Shown in pieces: positions 11,679 to 53,639 of a stretch of 64,000 bases of DNA. The notes under the pieces are model-generated. The model saw only the letters and a program-made list of their open reading frames with translations, made no database searches and was not told where the DNA came from. Where the stretch lies: the UHGV virus genome UHGV-1380027. The stretch is one strand, 5' to 3'. This stretch comes from a virus. Both the position numbers and the translations under genes were made by a program. Positions within the stretch are counted from its first letter, which is position 1. The number at the start of each line of letters is the position of its first letter.

Positions 11679-12719
11679 CTACGCATAATTAACAGTGATC
11701 CATTGACCATTTACAAGTTTTTGTAAAGGTCCTGCCCAGTAGGTTGAACCACGCATCTCTTTTTTATCACCAAAATGCCAACCTGTGACAACGTAGCCGT
11801 TGCGAACTGGAGATTCAGAAACACCATCAACAAGTCTTGCACCGATTCTGATATCCTGTACCCCTGTCTGCGGGATGGTGATCGTTACATCTCCGTTACC
11901 GTTAGCCGTCACTCCATTCACAGAGCGCACCACATTTCTGTTACCGACAACACAATGCTGGCTTCTTACAACCATACTGTCACAACTTGCACCGCCATCA
12001 ACATATACGGACCCAGCTGTCAACTGACTAGCCACATTACAGTTGGTGAATGTTGCTGTGCTGCTGATGGTAAGGTTGTTACACCGCATGTTATCGACAA
12101 CTTCAACATTACCTACCACTTTCAACAGCGCACGGTTAGCCGTGATCGCGTTCAGGTACATCAAAGTGAACTCTGGATTAATGTCTGGCTGAGTTGGCTG
12201 GAATCTCCAACGAAACGCATCTACTGTAGATGTGCCACCATCATCAAACGCCCCAGTGTTATCACTTAACCCAAAGTCGAGAGTTGTCTTATCTGGACCA
12301 ATAGTTGTCTCTATCCAAGCCTTATCTGTCTCGGCAGCTTTAAAGTTGATACGCTGCAAACCTAAGGGGCCTGTCATTGTATCGCCTGTAACTTTTACAT
12401 ACCTGGCGTCTGCCTCTTCCTTAGTGATAATCCCAAGGTTTCTACGGGCAACAGGAATGTTCAAAAGATCGCTCAGGTTATTATCACGTACCAGATAACG
12501 GCCCTCTTGGGCAGGGATCTGCTCGTCAGCAATATATTTTGCCCAAGTCCCGAGCATATTGAAAATATAGTTAAGTTCTTCACATGACGGCTTTTGACCA
12601 AGATCCCAACCTTTTCTCCACAAATCATCAATCGGGCGTAGCCTGTTCTGTCTGTGGGTGTTAGGCAGAACCTGATCCTCCTCTGCCCAAATCTCTAATG
12701 GAAAACTAGGTTTTGACAT
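11679..12719 (-). CDS. tail fiber protein (paralog A)
   Basis: 346 aa; shares N- and C-terminal modules with the 9620-10666 product (C-terminus KLVNGQWITVNYA). Confidence 0.5.
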   Translation of the reverse strand: MSKPSFPLEIWAEEDQVLPNTHRQNRLRPIDDLWRKGWDLGQKPSCEELNYIFNMLGTWAKYIADEQIPAQEGRYLVRDNNLSDLLNIPVARRNLGIITKEEADARYVKVTGDTMTGPLGLQRINFKAAETDKAWIETTIGPDKTTLDFGLSDNTGAFDDGGTSTVDAFRWRFQPTQPDINPEFTLMYLNAITANRALLKVVGNVEVVDNMRCNNLTISSTATFTNCNVASQLTAGSVYVDGGASCDSMVVRSQHCVVGNRNVVRSVNGVTANGNGDVTITIPQTGVQDIRIGARLVDGVSESPVRNGYVVTGWHFGDKKEMRGSTYWAGPLQKLVNGQWITVNYA

Positions 12720-12731
12720 TTTATCTCCTGA

Positions 12732-14804
12732 TTATGAGAAGTCTGGCGGAACAACATCTTCTACATACCCTTTCAGAGCAACCTGCCCCATATGCAGAAC
12801 AGTAGAATCTCTGGCGGTAACAGTGATGCTGTCAGACATTACTTGCGGGTATGCCCACACATACTGTTTTACCTCAGGGTATCTATACTCTATGGTTGCC
12901 ATGTTTCCGCAAATACATCTCCATAAAAATTCTTGGTAATTCCTGGTTGGGTCGTAGCCATATACCGGAGCAAGCTCTTTGCTAGGAACGAACCCTGCAA
13001 GGTATTGTATTTCAGACGGTTTCCAACCTAACTTAACGATAGGTATGTTTACAGACTCTTTTGCCTTTTCAATACCTCCCTGCATCACCCAATCGTAGCA
13101 CTCAGTGCAGAAGAAATCAAGAGCACCTGCTTCCTTTTTATATTGGTCAGCAAGGTTCAGTTTTTGCGTAAGCTCGGTTTCCATAATAGTGGGGAAAAAC
13201 AGTAAAGCTGTCATCTGAGCCGATGCAGCGTGTGCTTTTATTGCCTTTGAAATGGCTGCAATACGAGCGCCAAGCTTACCACGACAAAATGCTACATACT
13301 TGTCATAAACACCGCCAGTTTTAGGATCGTCAATAGTCCCAATGTCTAGTGCATATTCACCAGTCTCATCATAAAACGCCTGCTTTGTAGGGTAGTCATA
13401 AATACAAGGCTTACGAGTATCGGTATTGAACCACCACCACGGTTCACCAATCTGCATAATCACTGGTAGGTTGTTTCTCATAGCGGCTGATGCAAAATTC
13501 TTAAATACTGCAGTAAGGAAATTCATGCCCTCTTCAATGGTTGGAGACAGGAGGTAACTACAAGGCGTATAGCCTGTTTTAGCATAGTTATCGTTCCAGT
13601 CTCTCTGGGTCCATTCCAACGGACAGGCATCGCTATAAAGCTCAAAGCTTACAGACTGCATAACGTCGAAGTCATGTCGTTTGGCATTGTACATAAAATC
13701 ATCATGCCATTTATAAGCTGCAGCGTTTAGAGCTCCTGTTTTGTTTATAGACCATTGGGTTCCTGACCATGTGTAGTCATAATAATGGCTCATACCAACA
13801 TAATGGTTTATGGTTCCTGTATAGCCCAGACGCTTGATATTGCTCAACACCCTTAAAGGGGATACGTTCCACATATCGTCATATGCTGTGCAGATCCCAA
13901 CATCGTGTTCTTTCACCTGAATATTGTTAAGTTGCATCATTTTCCAGCCTGTGTCCGGCTGAAGAAGATCTAGACGCAACTCACACTCTACATTTTCCGT
14001 TCTCGGGTCTGTGCTATTACCTACCCAATCTTTAGGCATAAGTGGTATTAGAATCCTTCTCACCTGCCGAGGATCAACACCCATCATGTTGTTGTTCTGG
14101 TCCATCCCGACGCAGTCCTCGAAATCAATATGAATTTCTGCAACATTCTTATCCTCTGAGATGCTGACAGCATATTGAGCTAAAGGAACATAGATGATTG
14201 TACCATCAACAAGGTCTACAGGCATAATCATCTTTTCAGGGGTGGAGAAGTTGCTGGCATTGGTTATTGACATTCTGAACCAAAGCTTGGTGTTTCTCAT
14301 CTCGTAGTGATCATCAAATCCAATGCCGAAATGGTCATACTTGTCAACTGTTTCCCAAATGCACCCAGCCATGCCCCCATATGTTCTTGACACTAAACGG
14401 TTAATACAGCAGTTATTATCCGCAACAATACAGGTGCTTTCAGTCTGCTGTGTGGTTGTAACCCAGTATCTTGGGTGAAACATTCTCTCCTCAACTGTAT
14501 CCCAAGATATTCTGTCAAGATTCTCATCTGAAACTATTGTACATTTCGCTCTTTGTGTTCCAATCATAACCCCTTGGGAGTTTGATGAAAACTCCATAAA
14601 GAAGCTCCTTGGCAACCTGTTTGGCAATTTGTCAACAATTTCTACAGGGATCTCGATACTGGTTGCCCCAACCGGGATAGTTACATCGCCCTCAACATGA
14701 TCATAATCCCTACCCGGAACTGCAGTATCTTGAACTGTGCGGTAATGAAACCGTGCAGCCATTGTAGAGTAATCACGGTAAGGTTTAAAAACAGCTGTTG
14801 CCAT
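12732..14804 (-). CDS. tail-associated protein, possibly enzymatic
   Basis: 690 aa between baseplate-like genes and fiber genes; Trp/Tyr/Asp-rich sequence suggestive of a carbohydrate-active fold; no specific motif confirmed. Confidence 0.35.
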   Translation of the reverse strand: MATAVFKPYRDYSTMAARFHYRTVQDTAVPGRDYDHVEGDVTIPVGATSIEIPVEIVDKLPNRLPRSFFMEFSSNSQGVMIGTQRAKCTIVSDENLDRISWDTVEERMFHPRYWVTTTQQTESTCIVADNNCCINRLVSRTYGGMAGCIWETVDKYDHFGIGFDDHYEMRNTKLWFRMSITNASNFSTPEKMIMPVDLVDGTIIYVPLAQYAVSISEDKNVAEIHIDFEDCVGMDQNNNMMGVDPRQVRRILIPLMPKDWVGNSTDPRTENVECELRLDLLQPDTGWKMMQLNNIQVKEHDVGICTAYDDMWNVSPLRVLSNIKRLGYTGTINHYVGMSHYYDYTWSGTQWSINKTGALNAAAYKWHDDFMYNAKRHDFDVMQSVSFELYSDACPLEWTQRDWNDNYAKTGYTPCSYLLSPTIEEGMNFLTAVFKNFASAAMRNNLPVIMQIGEPWWWFNTDTRKPCIYDYPTKQAFYDETGEYALDIGTIDDPKTGGVYDKYVAFCRGKLGARIAAISKAIKAHAASAQMTALLFFPTIMETELTQKLNLADQYKKEAGALDFFCTECYDWVMQGGIEKAKESVNIPIVKLGWKPSEIQYLAGFVPSKELAPVYGYDPTRNYQEFLWRCICGNMATIEYRYPEVKQYVWAYPQVMSDSITVTARDSTVLHMGQVALKGYVEDVVPPDFS

Positions 14805-41970: not shown

Positions 41971-42978
41971 TTAGGCACCTTTCAGAGTTGCTTTAACAAC
42001 CAGCTCTGGGCGGGTGTTAACTGCCAGCATTGAAGTTTCAGATTCAATCTTCTCTTCACGCAGGTATGCAGAGTGTTTATACCACATGTACAGTTCCTGT
42101 GCAGGGGTGTTTGCTTCGTTAACATCATCTGCCGGAGCAAAGTGCAGCTGGAACATCTGATCAATACCCATCGGCAGGATGCGAGCCTCTTTCTTAGGAA
42201 TATTGCCAGAGATATCTTCGATAAAGGTGATACCTTTATGTTCAAACACACGGTATACGCTGTCTTGACCGCCAGCACCCAGACGGCGACGCAGAGGTTC
42301 CTGAGCAGAGCCGTAATAGGTGTATGCCAGTTCTACCAGCGGGTGATGGGTAACAGCACTGAAGAACTCCGGTGAGCACAGAGCTACGATGCGATAGCCA
42401 GCTGCGTTATCACCAGCTTGCAGCGCGATGTGCAGACGAGCCTCTTCCAGAACCTCCATAGGATCCTGATCTGCTTTTGCAGGGTCAATCTCAACAGATT
42501 TCTGTTTAACACCCCACAGAGTGTAGTAGTCATACTGACAGGTGGTGTCACCAGGTGCATAGGATTTACCCAGAATAGCCTGGAACAGCGCTTTCTCACG
42601 CAGTGCTTCATGAGAAACACGGATACGGCGAACAACGCGGGTTACTACGTCCTGAACAGTTTTCGGAGCATCAGGGGTGAAGTAACGACGGAAGTTCTGA
42701 ACATCTGCGGCAGTGATGCCTTTGTCCAGAGGGAAGAACGGGATGTTCAGGTTTTTAACCTGGGCACGTTCACTACCAACGTAGTTACGCTCACCACCAC
42801 GACGGCGTGCCGGAATGTCGGTTACAACTTCATCAACACGCTCGATCTGAGCAATCGTTGAGGTGCCGAGACGGGTTTCGAACAAATCCATACCAGTAAT
42901 CAGTCGGAATTGGCGCGGAACAAGTTCCAGAGTAGCACCTAAATCAACAATGCCAAATTCATCTTTACGAGTAATCAT
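41971..42978 (-). CDS. major capsid protein
   Basis: 335 aa; position after terminase-portal-protease-scaffold-decoration (lambda-like order), strong RBS and a strong terminator immediately downstream. Confidence 0.6.
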   Translation of the reverse strand: MITRKDEFGIVDLGATLELVPRQFRLITGMDLFETRLGTSTIAQIERVDEVVTDIPARRRGGERNYVGSERAQVKNLNIPFFPLDKGITAADVQNFRRYFTPDAPKTVQDVVTRVVRRIRVSHEALREKALFQAILGKSYAPGDTTCQYDYYTLWGVKQKSVEIDPAKADQDPMEVLEEARLHIALQAGDNAAGYRIVALCSPEFFSAVTHHPLVELAYTYYGSAQEPLRRRLGAGGQDSVYRVFEHKGITFIEDISGNIPKKEARILPMGIDQMFQLHFAPADDVNEANTPAQELYMWYKHSAYLREEKIESETSMLAVNTRPELVVKATLKGA

Positions 42979-49453: not shown

Positions 49454-49552
49454 GGTGCTAGGTGATGGAATCGAACCATCTATGTATTCAACGACTACCT
49501 CGTCTATTTTCAGGATTAAAAATCCTCGCCCTTGCCAAAGGGCTTACCTAGC
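49454..49552 (-). tRNA. atypical tRNA-like gene (about 99 nt; anticodon loop TTTTTAA, possibly TTT)
   Basis: Perfect 7-bp acceptor GCTAGGT/ACCTAGC, D arm GCCC-TTTGGCAA-GGGC, T arm GATGG-TTCGATT-CCATC, but about 31 nt between anticodon stem and T arm; no encoded CCA. Confidence 0.35.
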
Positions 49553-49855: not shown

Positions 49856-49943
49856 TGGTGGTGAGTGATGGAGTCGAACCACCCGAATCGCAATGATAAC
49901 AGATTTACAGTCTGCCCCGCTACCCCTACGGAATTAACTCACC
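49856..49943 (-). tRNA. tRNA-Tyr (anticodon GTA)
   Basis: Acceptor GGTGAGT/ACTCACC, anticodon arm GCAGA-CTGTAAA-TCTGT, long variable arm, T arm GGTGG-TTCGACT-CCATC, encoded CCA. Confidence 0.7.
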
Positions 49944-50244: not shown

Positions 50245-50583
50245 TTAACTATTGCCAACAGGCTGTATTTCTGTGGTAAATGGCATAAAAGGTGCTGGTT
50301 TTTCAGCCTCTTCCACTACCACCTCTTCCTCTTCACCAAACATCTCATCATATTCTTCCTGCATTCGGTCTGCCTTATCAAGAACATACTCTGCAATGCT
50401 TTGACGAATATTTTGTTTGGTTTTCGGGTCCAACATCAGCTCTCTTAAAACTTTGTGAGCTTCTGGAACCATCGCTATAAAAGATTCCTTCATATCAAGA
50501 ATGTTCTTCTCTAGCTGAATGGCGTTGGACTCCTCTTTCAGAGGTCTGCCTCTACGGCGACGCTTTTTAGTTGTATCCGCCAT
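50245..50583 (-). CDS. small protein with basic N-terminus and acidic C-terminus
   Basis: Start trimmed to an internal ATG (50581-50583) preceded by RBS GGAGGAAAC; N-terminus KKRRRRGRPLKEE, C-terminus EEEEVVVEEAE; the listed longer ORF runs into a non-coding GC-rich island. Confidence 0.4.
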   Translation of the reverse strand: MADTTKKRRRRGRPLKEESNAIQLEKNILDMKESFIAMVPEAHKVLRELMLDPKTKQNIRQSIAEYVLDKADRMQEEYDEMFGEEEEVVVEEAEKPAPFMPFTTEIQPVGNS

Positions 50584-50928
50584 GTTTCCTCCATTATCAC
50601 GTGATAGGTGGATTTTATCACGGCAAATACTGATTGTCAAGTTCGCCGCAGGGTGGTATTCCCTGCGACTTGCCCAGCGTCCTGGACCAGCAAGACCCAA
50701 CAAGTGGGTTACCAGATACCCATTACCGCGCTCTGGCTCGACCTTATTACAGGTTGGCTGGGGTCACATCGTCATGTGCTGGCTGCCCCTACCATTTTAA
50801 GTGTGGTGCACTATCAAGCCCTCTAAGGGGAACTCAGCCTTCTCCGAACCCTGTTTCAAAGCATCCGGAGATAAAGCCATCAAACTCATCTTTAAATTGG
50901 ATATTCATCATGATACACGAAAACAACC

Positions 50929-51446: not shown

Positions 51447-52025
51447 TCAACGTTCGTAGTAAATCTTATTCAACATTACCTCATCGTTTGCAGAAAGGAT
51501 ATCAAGATATGCATCACCAAATCTGCCTGCAACAACCTCTGCATGATACATCACTTCGTTAACATCGTCAAGAGTGATAACCGGATGACCATATCTTTCT
51601 GAATATTGTCTCAGTGTGCGATGTAACGAGTCGTCATCATATGCAGACTTTTTAATATCACAAACACGACGAATGGCCTTGATGTCGAAAAAACCTGTGC
51701 GATACCACCCAAGAAAAAAGTTCCGTGTAGTGTCAACATCTACACCAATACCATTAAGAACCTTATCTACAAGATAGCTGTCATCCTTTGGACTAGCGTC
51801 CTTAGTGCGAATGTAGTTGCCATCTTTTCCAGGTGATAGCTCCTTCTCATCACCAACCTGCATGCCATCATTTGGCGGTGTTAGCCACTTATCAGGATGC
51901 TTACGATCACGAGCGTTAGAATGATTACGCTGGAAACCTGGCTTCCACTTGAAAGTTTTCTCCATCTGTTCTTCATTCTGATAACGTTTTGCAATCTTTT
52001 CACTGGCATCTTTGCGTGAACTCAT
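51447..52025 (-). CDS. hypothetical protein
   Basis: 192 aa, charged; first gene downstream of the origin-like region. Confidence 0.35.
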   Translation of the reverse strand: MSSRKDASEKIAKRYQNEEQMEKTFKWKPGFQRNHSNARDRKHPDKWLTPPNDGMQVGDEKELSPGKDGNYIRTKDASPKDDSYLVDKVLNGIGVDVDTTRNFFLGWYRTGFFDIKAIRRVCDIKKSAYDDDSLHRTLRQYSERYGHPVITLDDVNEVMYHAEVVAGRFGDAYLDILSANDEVMLNKIYYER

Positions 52026-52529
52026 AGCAGACTCCTCTTCAAGTTATAGAAAAACTCACTGTATCGCTTTGTAACGAGCTTTTCTATCAAACTGGTGCGA
52101 TTGCCTTACTTGGTATAGTTTATATAGCTGTGGAGCGATTTAGGGGCCTTCTTGTCAGTTTCCACACATAAACTTTATCCGAACTCGCGCGGGAGGCTCT
52201 CAACCGACTCCTTCCGGCGCTGGCAAGCTTTCGTCGGTGGTCCACATTAGTGCTCGGCCTTTGGCCTGCGCTATCGCTTCGCTCCCACACATGTTAACAG
52301 TCCTGCATGTATGCACTTCTGTTATTGTGTGCACTATGGAGGCCCGGCATCTCGCCCCTCGTAGGCGAGTGCCAATGAAGGGCCGACACTACCCATAATA
52401 AGTAATAAATTTAAAACATGGTACTTAGGATCTAGTATATTCTACATAAGTTAAGTATATGTACTTTAGTACCATAAGTACTAGATCTTTTATTTTTTAT
52501 TATTTAGTTATTTTAGTTATATTCTTTAT

Positions 52530-52612
52530 GTGTCCGTATCACGGACAGTTAGTGTCCGTATTACGGGCAGATGTGTCCGCGTGACGGACAGTAGTGTCCG
52601 TATCACGGACAG
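52530..52612. repeat. four tandem 19-bp palindromic iteron/operator units
   Basis: GTGTCCGTATCACGGACAG at 52530 and 52594 (perfect 7-bp arms TGTCCGT/ACGGACA), one-mismatch variants at 52552 and 52573; 21-22 bp phasing. Confidence 0.8.
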
Positions 52613-52686
52613 TTACTAACTTCTGTTCCAGAGTGAACATAAAACATACAAATCCTTATAGTACAGATGTTTAAGTTTTTACTGGT

Positions 52687-53037
52687 CTAACCAGTTGTTG
52701 ACATTCGAATAACTTCTTCTGGTGGCAAAACTTTGGAAAATGTGCATCTTTTACCTCTCCCTTGTGTGGATATTTCAACCACTCCTGCACATTCTAAAGT
52801 TTTAACGCACGCTGCTGCTTTTGTTTTCTTTATCCCAACATCTGCTGCAATTTTCCTTGTGCTGGGTGTGAAGCGTGAATTTTCTCCAAGCTTATACCAG
52901 TTGTGCAGGTAGCAGTATACGATCTTGTCATATAAGTCAAGAACAACAACCTCCCCAGTTGTGTCATTCAAAACTTTTGACATAGACAGTATTTCAAGGG
53001 GGACTTTAAGATATAGCAGCTTATCCCCATCTTTCAT
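52687..53037 (-). CDS. small helix-turn-helix DNA-binding protein
   Basis: 116 aa; segment TRKIAADVGIKKTKAAACVKTLECAGVV resembles a helix-turn-helix; gene ends 75 bp from the palindrome array. Confidence 0.35.
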   Translation of the reverse strand: MKDGDKLLYLKVPLEILSMSKVLNDTTGEVVVLDLYDKIVYCYLHNWYKLGENSRFTPSTRKIAADVGIKKTKAAACVKTLECAGVVEISTQGRGKRCTFSKVLPPEEVIRMSTTG

Positions 53038-53084
53038 ATCTCCTGATTCTCCTTGTGTGGCAATTTTCTTTAAAATAGCAGGGA

Positions 53085-53639
53085 TTACTCCCCGCTGTCA
53101 ATAGCAAGACTCATTGCAATACGGTATGCCTCTTCTAATGGTAAGAGTCTCCCCCACACATCCCAACCGACATCAAACTGCCTGCCAAACAACTGCTGTG
53201 TGGTTCCGTGAGCATGACCGAACAGTTGGACTGATCCGTGAGGCTTTCTGTTCCACTTTGCAAACTGGTAATGGCTCATACAGATCAAATTCTTGTTGTG
53301 GCGAAGCTCGTAATAATCTACAACCTCATGACCGAACTCTTTCATAATTCTGACAGTCGTCCTTGTGTCATGGTTACCACGAACAAGAATAATATGTCCG
53401 TTCAACATATTTAGAACATCTGGAAGCAATTTGTTGATATTCTTATCATTAGTGCACGCAATATCCCCCAAGTGAAACACAGTGTCTGCAGGTGACACAA
53501 CAGAGTTCCACTTGGTGATGATTCCCGCATTCATACTGTCAAGATTGTGATCATACTGAGATCTGTGTTTTTGACATGAGTCGAACTCCATTACCCGCTG
53601 GTGGAGAAAGTGTGTGTCGCTTGTTACAAAGTATTTCAT
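53085..53639 (-). CDS. calcineurin-like metallophosphoesterase
   Basis: Motifs SDTHF (DxH), GDIACTNDKN (GDxxDxG-like), LVRGNHD (GNHD/E), GHAHG; start trimmed to internal ATG 53637-53639 that matches motif spacing. Confidence 0.6.
   Translation of the reverse strand: MKYFVTSDTHFLHQRVMEFDSCQKHRSQYDHNLDSMNAGIITKWNSVVSPADTVFHLGDIACTNDKNINKLLPDVLNMLNGHIILVRGNHDTRTTVRIMKEFGHEVVDYYELRHNKNLICMSHYQFAKWNRKPHGSVQLFGHAHGTTQQLFGRQFDVGWDVWGRLLPLEEAYRIAMSLAIDSGE

Follow-up and report, generated by a model that had tools for sequence, protein, structure and literature searches.

The 64,000-nucleotide stretch of the virus genome UHGV-1380027 that we analyzed (referred to at its full length as the window) derives from a Vequintavirus (rV5-like phage), and between two of its genes it carries four phased palindromic sites that directly adjoin an AT-rich block. 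The array formed by these sites is unique and constrained, the block that it contacts is the most meltable DNA of the genome, the neighboring gene encodes a 116-amino-acid (aa) winged-helix protein whose homologues travel with different arrays, and gene and array share a non-lethal phenotype. Based on the sequence and on analogy with known systems, we propose with moderate confidence that the array, the AT block and the winged-helix gene constitute an accessory, initiator-bound replication-origin cassette of rV5-like phages. We infer this role from an architecture resembling that of the bacteriophage lambda origin (ori-lambda), an initiator-like protein, a location at a switch in GC skew and transcription, and a parallel in plasmid-like elements. 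The rV5-like phages are widely isolated and are used for Escherichia coli biocontrol and therapy, and our literature search turned up no publication on the array, on a connection between it and the protein, or on a proposed replication origin in this group; the cassette offers a concrete candidate together with its probable binding protein. The 2.4 kb surrounding the array are 99.8% identical to Escherichia phage vB_EcoM-ECP26 (complete genome of 137 kb; window position x equals ECP26 position x + 28975) and 95-99% identical to more than 100 further rV5-like phages.

The first-pass annotation of this region had placed four palindromes at 52530, 52552, 52573 and 52594 with a 21-22-bp phase, which is exactly what the sequence contains. 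Specifically, 22-nt units begin at these positions, spaced 22, 21 and 21 bp apart, and share the consensus TGTCCG-N5-CGGACA, with one half-site of the second copy reading CGGGCA. When up to two mismatches are allowed, the consensus has only four matches in the window, all of them in the array; this count was equaled in one of 100 shuffled sequences, and the clustering and phasing of the matches are far beyond chance. Across the ECP26 genome the motif is confined to the array and one unrelated match with two mismatches, and the array is the highest-scoring tandem repeat. An exact-motif scan of IMG/VR for GTGTCCGNNNNNCGGACAG was uninformative, the matches listed being mostly single chance matches. 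Rfam has no family for the array or for the GC-rich blocks described below, and a sub-threshold match to rli43 was judged to be spurious. Separately, four independent assemblies (three Logan contigs and MG065672.1 of phage A141) end inside the array or a few bases from it, probably because assemblies break at short repeats beside very AT-rich DNA, and less probably because of a physical discontinuity in the molecule.

Conservation of the array in related genomes, which the earlier annotation had named as a check, is borne out by an alignment of eleven distinct Vequintavirus copies whose helix-turn-helix (HTH) proteins are 85-100% identical (gaps were ignored). Only 1 of the 48 half-site positions and 1 of the 18 positions in the inter-site linkers vary, as compared to 4/20 in the central 5-nt spacers, 13/135 in the AT block, 43/270 in the GC-rich block beyond it and 12/18 in the 18-bp linker to the right of the array, which is the least constrained segment; at third codon positions of three flanking genes, 28-31% are variable. 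The half-site changes are single T/C transitions that are never compensated on the partner arm. Invariant half-sites, free spacers and uncompensated changes fit a dimeric protein that contacts two inverted half-sites on DNA, rather than a hairpin, and the palindromic nature of each unit likewise implies binding by a dimer and not a monomer. Most isolates have four copies of the site, whereas there are three in A135, FFH2, nimi and O157 typing phage 4 and two in YN3. Copies have been lost through independent deletions of whole units with the phase held constant, and the isolates with two or three sites are viable.

The AT-rich tract with direct repeats that had been reported to the left of the array is present (52395-52529, with the direct repeat TTATTTAGTTATTTTAGTTAT at 52500-52520). 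An inverted repeat had also been described there; it exists, but its coordinates were about 10 nt off, as the true arms are GGATCTAGTA at 52428-52437 and TACTAGATCT at 52479-52488. The GC content of the block is 22-25% in 100-nt windows, with a 40-nt minimum of 7%. By nearest-neighbor duplex energies, no other segment of the window is as unstable at 40, 80 or 120 bp (z scores of 4.9, 5.4 and 6.0, respectively), and the same measure applied to the whole ECP26 genome again ranks it as least stable at these sizes (z of 4.7, 5.1 and 5.7) and third at 200 bp. The location of the block within the genome is also suggestive: in ECP26 the cumulative GC-skew minimum falls at 82-83 kb and transcription diverges at 83.1 kb, and the array lies at 81.5 kb.

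The small HTH gene that was noted 75 bp from the array encodes 116 aa, and its stop codon lies 76 nt from the start of the array. The protein consists of a single winged-helix domain with Pfam matches to DUF6945 (1.7e-6) and HTH_36 (1.9e-5). Among phage protein families (PHROG) it matches 12838, annotated as 'replication initiation protein', and more weakly the N-terminal parts of phrog_8102, phrog_428 and phrog_270, so that it appears to resemble the N-terminal DNA-binding part of the O-like and DnaD-like initiators of phages. Pfam finds neither Phage_rep_O nor Rep_3 in it. The protein is a near-orphan: an exhaustive HMMER search of 1.8 billion representatives returned nine matches, namely its own cluster and weak HTH_36/DUF6945 matches, and a word-indexed protein search retrieved nothing below 85% identity. 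Because the matches are few, and weak outside the family, no deep alignment is possible. Its closest solved relative is 4ro3, an uncharacterized 120-aa protein (E-value 1e-5). The putative recognition helix is invariant across the family, which parallels the invariant half-sites of the array. Many GenBank records label the protein a 'transcriptional regulator' and some databases a 'replication initiation protein'; the repeats are entered as a repeat_region in a few GenBank files.

The most informative comparison was that with sister genera, whose syntenic regions were located via a conserved phosphoesterase. In Erwinia phage Hena1 (Henunavirus, NC_048828.1), a 122-aa winged-helix gene precedes, in this order, three CTAATTATTCCC-N4-GGGTATA sites phased at 24 bp, an AT block and a strong sigma-70 promoter. 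The same layout is found in a Klebsiella Mydovirus, where a 120-aa homologue is accompanied by TATTCC-N6-GGAATA sites, and a Cronobacter Seunavirus has a 105-aa open reading frame (ORF), two CCTAnnCTCAAATTGATA repeats and an AT block. The proteins form a chain of homology that links the window protein to the Seunavirus ORF (E-value 2e-6) and the Seunavirus ORF to the Mydovirus protein (1e-3); the Seunavirus ORF also matches phrog_8102 (1.4e-35, positions 9-113 of 337). Hena1 contains a second module with the gene-then-sites order of the window: behind the gene for gp130 (94 aa; phrog_8102, 2.9e-14) come TGACAAATTTGTCA-type palindromes with a spacing of 23 bp and then an AT block. By instability, the two AT blocks take the top two ranks in the Hena1 genome, each of them close to a GC-skew minimum. 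Five modules from four genera thus combine a gene for a 94-122-aa winged-helix protein with palindromes of their own at a 21-24-bp phase and an AT block. That protein and sites change together across genera, while layout and phase persist, is good indirect evidence that the protein binds the sites; it also makes it unlikely that they are sites for a host factor. The two Hena1 modules (42.68-42.96 kb and 132.0-132.45 kb) are paralogous, each being made up of a winged-helix gene, palindromes, an AT block and a promoter, and they differ in proteins and sites but share the AT-block segment TAAAGATCTTAAAGAYCTTATAGGGG. A side product of this comparison is the Seunavirus ORF itself, which in Cronobacter phage EspYZU08 (MW882934.1, a sparsely annotated record) lies at 2136-2453 on the minus strand and is absent from the GenBank annotation.

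Phenotypic data come from a 2025 preprint that applied the transposon-insertion sequencing method HIDEN-SEQ to the Vequintavirus Bas54 (phage MaxBurger) (10.1101/2025.11.20.689424). The HTH gene, bas54_0212 (132224-132574), was hit at 17 of its 20 TA sites with a mean count of 13.6 and was classified as 'Intermediate', as compared to mean counts of 170.6, 139.9 and 139.5 for neighboring genes (10.1101/2025.11.20.689424). The same class was given to bas54_0213 (132621-132722), with four of seven TA sites hit and a mean of 18.1 (10.1101/2025.11.20.689424). In the Bas54 record (MZ501093.1), bas54_0213 is a spurious ORF laid across the array (about 52539-52640 in the window), with iterons at 132650, 132671, 132692 and 132714; its 'Intermediate' call therefore reports on the array and not on a protein. 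Our recount of the TA sites in the two features (20 and 7) agrees with the preprint table. The AT block of Bas54 (132723-132870), with 31 TA sites, falls under no gene call. Pseudo-ORFs over the GC-rich block (bas54_0214 and bas54_0215), on the other hand, tolerate insertions, with means of 134.9 and 78.4 (10.1101/2025.11.20.689424). Gene and array hence share a depletion of insertions of about 8-10-fold (about 8-fold for the array) that is not lethal, and these matching intermediate phenotypes fit one functional unit. The origin reading offers an explanation for both 'Intermediate' calls in the Bas54 map.

The preprint also reports a non-coding region of about 2 kb in Bas54 that received no insertions (10.1101/2025.11.20.689424) and that is equivalent to 120.2-122.7 kb of ECP26, outside the window. 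In ECP26, the corresponding segment (120231-122722; 2.5 kb, between convergent gene blocks) contains two very AT-rich stretches as well as several inverted repeats and at least six copies of ACTGTTTACG. Since the corresponding place in relatives is occupied by direct terminal repeats of 514-519 bp (Hena1 record; KPP-1, PMC9862379), the simplest reading is that the insertion-free region is probably the terminus and packaging region. We considered it as the site of the true origin, which is possible, and set this idea aside in view of the relatives' terminal repeats.

A further parallel comes from outside the phages. Homologues of the GC-rich block that flanks the AT block are found only in Vequintavirus and in circular E. 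coli 'plasmids' of 13.2-13.7 kb (NZ_CP020521.1, circular, 13,689 bp; CP148565; NZ_CP035869; NZ_CP178698; NZ_CP043822). Both lineages share a conserved, structured GC core of about 65 nt (approximately 52184-52248 in the window). Within this core, a direct test of one 6-bp stem, recognized by eye, showed that three of its six pairs are compensated between the two lineages; RNAalifold did not recover the stem, and a scan of bacterial genomes for a 19-nt motif of the core gave only chance matches in GC-rich bacteria. The sole large non-coding region of NZ_CP020521.1 contains the GC core at 12388, the least stable AT block at 12954-13126 and seven iterons at 13235-13511. These iterons are palindromic (CGGAAATATTTACCG) with a 23-bp phase, and the order of the parts is that of the window. 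A winged-helix protein encoded nearby has weak initiator-like matches, and the elements also have genes for a tape measure, a baseplate protein and a capsid protein, the last being a full-length, distant homologue of the window's own (41971-42978, minus strand; 23% identity, E-value 6e-12). As the elements were assembled as circles in several unrelated isolates, the non-coding iteron region is their likeliest origin, and this raises our confidence in the origin reading of the phage locus. Being uncharacterized themselves, the elements are a parallel and not a reference; their iterons (CGGAAATATTTACCG or GAGAAATTCTC) differ in sequence, number (seven) and phase (23 bp), and the parts lie farther apart. 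The circular elements could be satellites or mini-phages related to rV5-like phages, and the link may point to an unrecognized satellite family. With its three copies of the core, a 39.6-kb record of the element family is possibly a trimer.

Taken further, the shared core raises an idea that we regard as rather doubtful: by analogy, rV5-like myophages and the 13-kb elements might share a portable three-part origin cassette, made up of a structured GC element, an unwinding block and palindromic iterons, and served by a minimal single-domain initiator. Were this so, the 13-kb elements would be relying on or imitating this replication logic as satellites or mini-phages, and a minimal initiator that opens DNA without a helicase-recruiting domain would represent a new organization for a phage origin.

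The first-pass annotation had likened the locus to the lambda origin. The architectural analogy holds and is strengthened by the two-turn phase of the sites, the genome-wide stability minimum at the AT tract, the initiator-like neighboring protein and the recurrence of this layout in a small circular replicon and in the sister genera. Like ori-lambda, where four inverted-repeat iterons of about 19 bp lie beside an AT tract and two iterons plus this tract suffice for unwinding (PMC7466680), the locus has four regularly phased inverted-repeat iterons directly beside an AT-rich tract, an adjacent gene for the candidate binding protein, and predicted transcription through or near the sites; the sufficiency of two iterons in lambda (PMC7466680) parallels the viable two-copy isolates described above. 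The lambda origin, however, lies inside the O gene, whereas the array here lies 76 nt past a stop codon; the C-terminal domain of lambda O recruits P-DnaB and its gene is followed by P, whereas the window protein has one domain, no P-like partner and no Phage_rep_O match; and ori-lambda is essential for lytic growth, whereas the cassette is dispensable.

Iteron plasmids (P1 oriR, pPS10, R6K gamma and RK2 oriV) resemble the locus in their phase of about 22 bp, their adjacent AT region and their adjacent initiator gene; their sites also overlap the initiator promoter for autoregulation, a trait shared by the modules of Hena1 and the Mydovirus. The unwinding region of P1 contains GATC motifs. However, iterons in these plasmids are asymmetric direct repeats that are bound by Rep monomers with two winged helices (Rep_3), unlike the palindromes and the single domain seen here, and their origins have DnaA boxes or an integration host factor (IHF) site, which were not found in the gap. 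The locus is therefore a member of neither the lambda O/ori family nor the iteron-plasmid family.

A further comparison is with T4, in which several origins fire early and recombination-dependent replication follows (PMC3016281). The more active T4 origins lie at switches of transcription direction and skew, and oriF and oriG follow the logic of a promoter with an AT-rich unwinding element downstream (PMC3016281). T4 is likewise a large lytic myophage, with redundant origins, one of which (oriE) has evenly spaced repeats, and the modules of ECP26 and Hena1 also lie near points where transcription diverges and skew is at a minimum. By T4-like logic, a dispensable early origin would be non-essential on its own but costly to lose, which is the pattern of gene and array in Bas54. 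The oriE repeats differ in being 12-nt direct repeats without a proven binding protein or role, and no relationship in sequence to the T4 protein RepEB was seen, none having been tested for (oriE is associated with RepEA and RepEB).

In the mechanism that we envisage, dimers of the 116-aa protein would bind the four palindromes, and the two-helical-turn spacing would align them on one face of the DNA, giving a compact nucleoprotein assembly like that of lambda O on its origin. The strain exerted by this assembly, together with early transcription that would run from the promoter upstream of the HTH gene through the gene and into the array, could then open the adjoining AT block, where the phage primase-helicase and polymerase would enter; the structured GC-rich element may assist priming or processing. 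The promoter in question is predicted about 540 bp upstream of the array and AT block. No terminator-like site is found in 51900-53200, and hence none between this promoter and the AT block, so that its predicted transcripts would pass through the HTH gene into array and block. The phage encodes recombination functions (endonuclease VII, an exonuclease and a RecD-like helicase), which make other replication starts possible, as in T4; the cassette would accordingly aid fitness without being essential. By analogy, the same sites probably also regulate transcription locally. In iteron plasmids the sites of the initiator regulate transcription as well, and initiators autoregulate. If the origin reading is correct, an initiator with no more than one winged helix is able to act at an iteron origin, and reliance on dispensable origins extends to large lytic phages beyond the T4 group.

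Several observations weigh against an origin. Since neither the gene nor the array is essential in Bas54, replication cannot start from the cassette alone; this is compatible with an origin in a large, lytic phage that encodes recombination functions, but it rules out a sole, essential origin of the lambda type. The 116-aa protein has no recognizable module for recruiting a helicase or a loader, and there is no loader gene nearby. The PHROG initiator labels are themselves inferred annotations, and AlphaFold2, run on a shallow alignment, gave an unusable model (predicted local distance difference test score of 40.5). Neither of the DnaA-box and IHF consensus motifs scanned for (TTWTNCACA, WATCAANNNNTTR) is matched in 52026-52686; matches to TTATCCACA with at most one mismatch in 51500-53500 lie only within flanking coding sequence, one of them at 52765-52773 in the HTH gene. 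Only 10% of the AT block is variable, a degree of sequence conservation that exceeds what unwinding alone would need, so the block holds additional specific sites. The position at the skew minimum is confounded with transcription, as the rV5 genome paper found skew switches only where transcription changes direction and defined no origin (PMC3606486). Lastly, the HTH gene of Hena1 and of the Mydovirus has a TTGACA-17-TAGnCT promoter with the proximal site on one side and the two distal sites on the other, which makes autoregulation likely there and, taken alone, argues for nothing beyond autoregulation.

The last of these points leads to the alternative that survives best, which had already been raised in the first-pass annotation and which we consider tenable but somewhat unlikely: the array may be an operator bank, with the 116-aa protein acting as a transcription factor whose occupied sites repress or insulate local transcription. 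Its targets would be transcripts reading out of the HTH operon into ORF77 and the tRNA cluster, the antisense promoter-like site to the right of the array, or both, and the AT block would be an upstream or curved-DNA element. The arrangement in Hena1 and the Mydovirus is the classical autoregulatory layout, and the AT block of the sister genera is followed by a strong sigma-70 promoter. In the window, a conserved promoter-like site lies 19 bp from the array, at the position held by the HTH gene's own promoter in Hena1 and the Mydovirus (its -10 element is TATAAT in the Aya lineage, and its -35 element is TGGACA in others). Conservation of the AT block in sequence, beyond composition, non-essentiality with a fitness cost, which is typical of phage regulators, and the many GenBank records that name the protein a transcriptional regulator would all be accounted for as well. 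However, the array of the window is situated past the end of the gene, where there is no promoter for it to overlap, and a scan for sigma-70-like promoters found none in the AT block or beyond it towards ORF77. Four sites phased at two helical turns beside the least stable 120 bp of the genome would be an unusual operator layout, the same order of parts recurs in the sole large non-coding region of a plasmid-like replicon, and the nearest profile families of the protein are N-terminal domains of initiators. The operator idea stays a live rival, particularly by virtue of the sister-genus sites that flank the HTH promoter. The two roles do not exclude each other and, judging from iteron plasmids, may well coexist; an operator bank would still be a conserved early regulatory switch across the Vequintavirinae.

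A different nucleoprotein function is improbable. In this case the array would serve packaging or terminase recognition, the processing of concatemers, or as a decoy or trigger in defense or for satellites, with the small protein as an adaptor. Small winged-helix proteins that bind repeated sites include the small terminase subunits and comparable adaptors, several assemblies end in or at the array, and the GC core is shared with capsid-encoding 13-kb elements that are possibly satellites. However, contig breaks at short repeats by AT-rich DNA are a common assembly artefact, and the direct terminal repeats of 514-519 bp in relatives are located elsewhere (Hena1 record; KPP-1, PMC9862379). The insertion-free region of Bas54 coincides with the equivalent of this terminus and not with the array, the gene is among the early genes and not with the terminase, and packaging signals are normally essential, whereas the array is not. 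Finally, we reject, as highly improbable, the reading of the palindromes as transcript hairpins (a stabilizer, processing site or attenuator that would need no protein on DNA): each unit is able to fold, with a 6-bp stem and a loop of 5 nt, the stems are conserved and the loops variable, and transcription from 53072-53101 should cross them, but no stem is followed by a T-run and there is no terminator-like site, the half-site changes lack compensation (site 3 has a C-A mismatch on the mRNA strand in every genome, and the FV3 change is on the opposite arm), all four stems have the same sequence, beyond the need of structure, the exact 21-22-bp phase and unit-wise changes in copy number fit recognition of DNA, and different palindromes accompany divergent protein homologues in sister genera.

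The features of the locus are collected in Table 1. The gap between the HTH gene and ORF77 (51447-52025, minus strand) spans 52026-52686 (661 bp) and contains no credible ORF.

Table 1. Coordinates of the features in and around the gap (window positions).
Feature	Position	Strand	Remarks
5' leader	52026-52124	plus-strand reading	part of the gap
GC-rich block without ORFs	52125-52394		55-58% GC; flanks the AT block on the side opposite the array
AT-rich block, candidate DNA-unwinding element	52395-52529		TTAGTTA direct repeats and two inverted motifs containing GATC
Four phased palindromic sites	52530-52615		TGTCCG-N5-CGGACA; cores at 52531-52547, 52553-52569, 52574-52590 and 52595-52611
Hypervariable linker from array to promoter-like site	52616-52633		12/18 positions variable; right boundary of the conserved array
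Promoter-like site TGAACA-17-TATAGT	52634-52662	+	19 bp right of the array; antisense into the HTH gene
116-aa winged-helix gene (rV5 gp075/ORF79, bas54_0212)	52687-53037	-	candidate array-binding protein
Sigma-70-like promoter TTGACA-18-TATTTT, TG-extended	53072-53101	-	upstream of the HTH gene; annotated as P76 in the rV5 record

The HTH gene lies among early genes, away from the terminase, and the genes downstream of it are of unknown function. A gene further along, which encodes a small protein of phrog_3330 (50245-50583, minus strand; rV5 ORF74, bas54_0220), is essential in the Bas54 transposon data, where, unlike all of its neighbors, it was hit at 1 of 20 TA sites. A second GC-rich, ORF-free block, at about 50600-50850, lies directly upstream of this gene. 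The tRNA cluster contains a 99-nt tRNA-like gene (49454-49552, minus strand) that ARAGORN reports with a four-base anticodon as 'tRNA-???' and that is annotated as tRNA-OTHER in phage naam, as well as a weak Rfam tRNA match at 49859-49943 (minus strand) that ARAGORN missed and that occupies the place of the annotated tRNA-Tyr of relatives.

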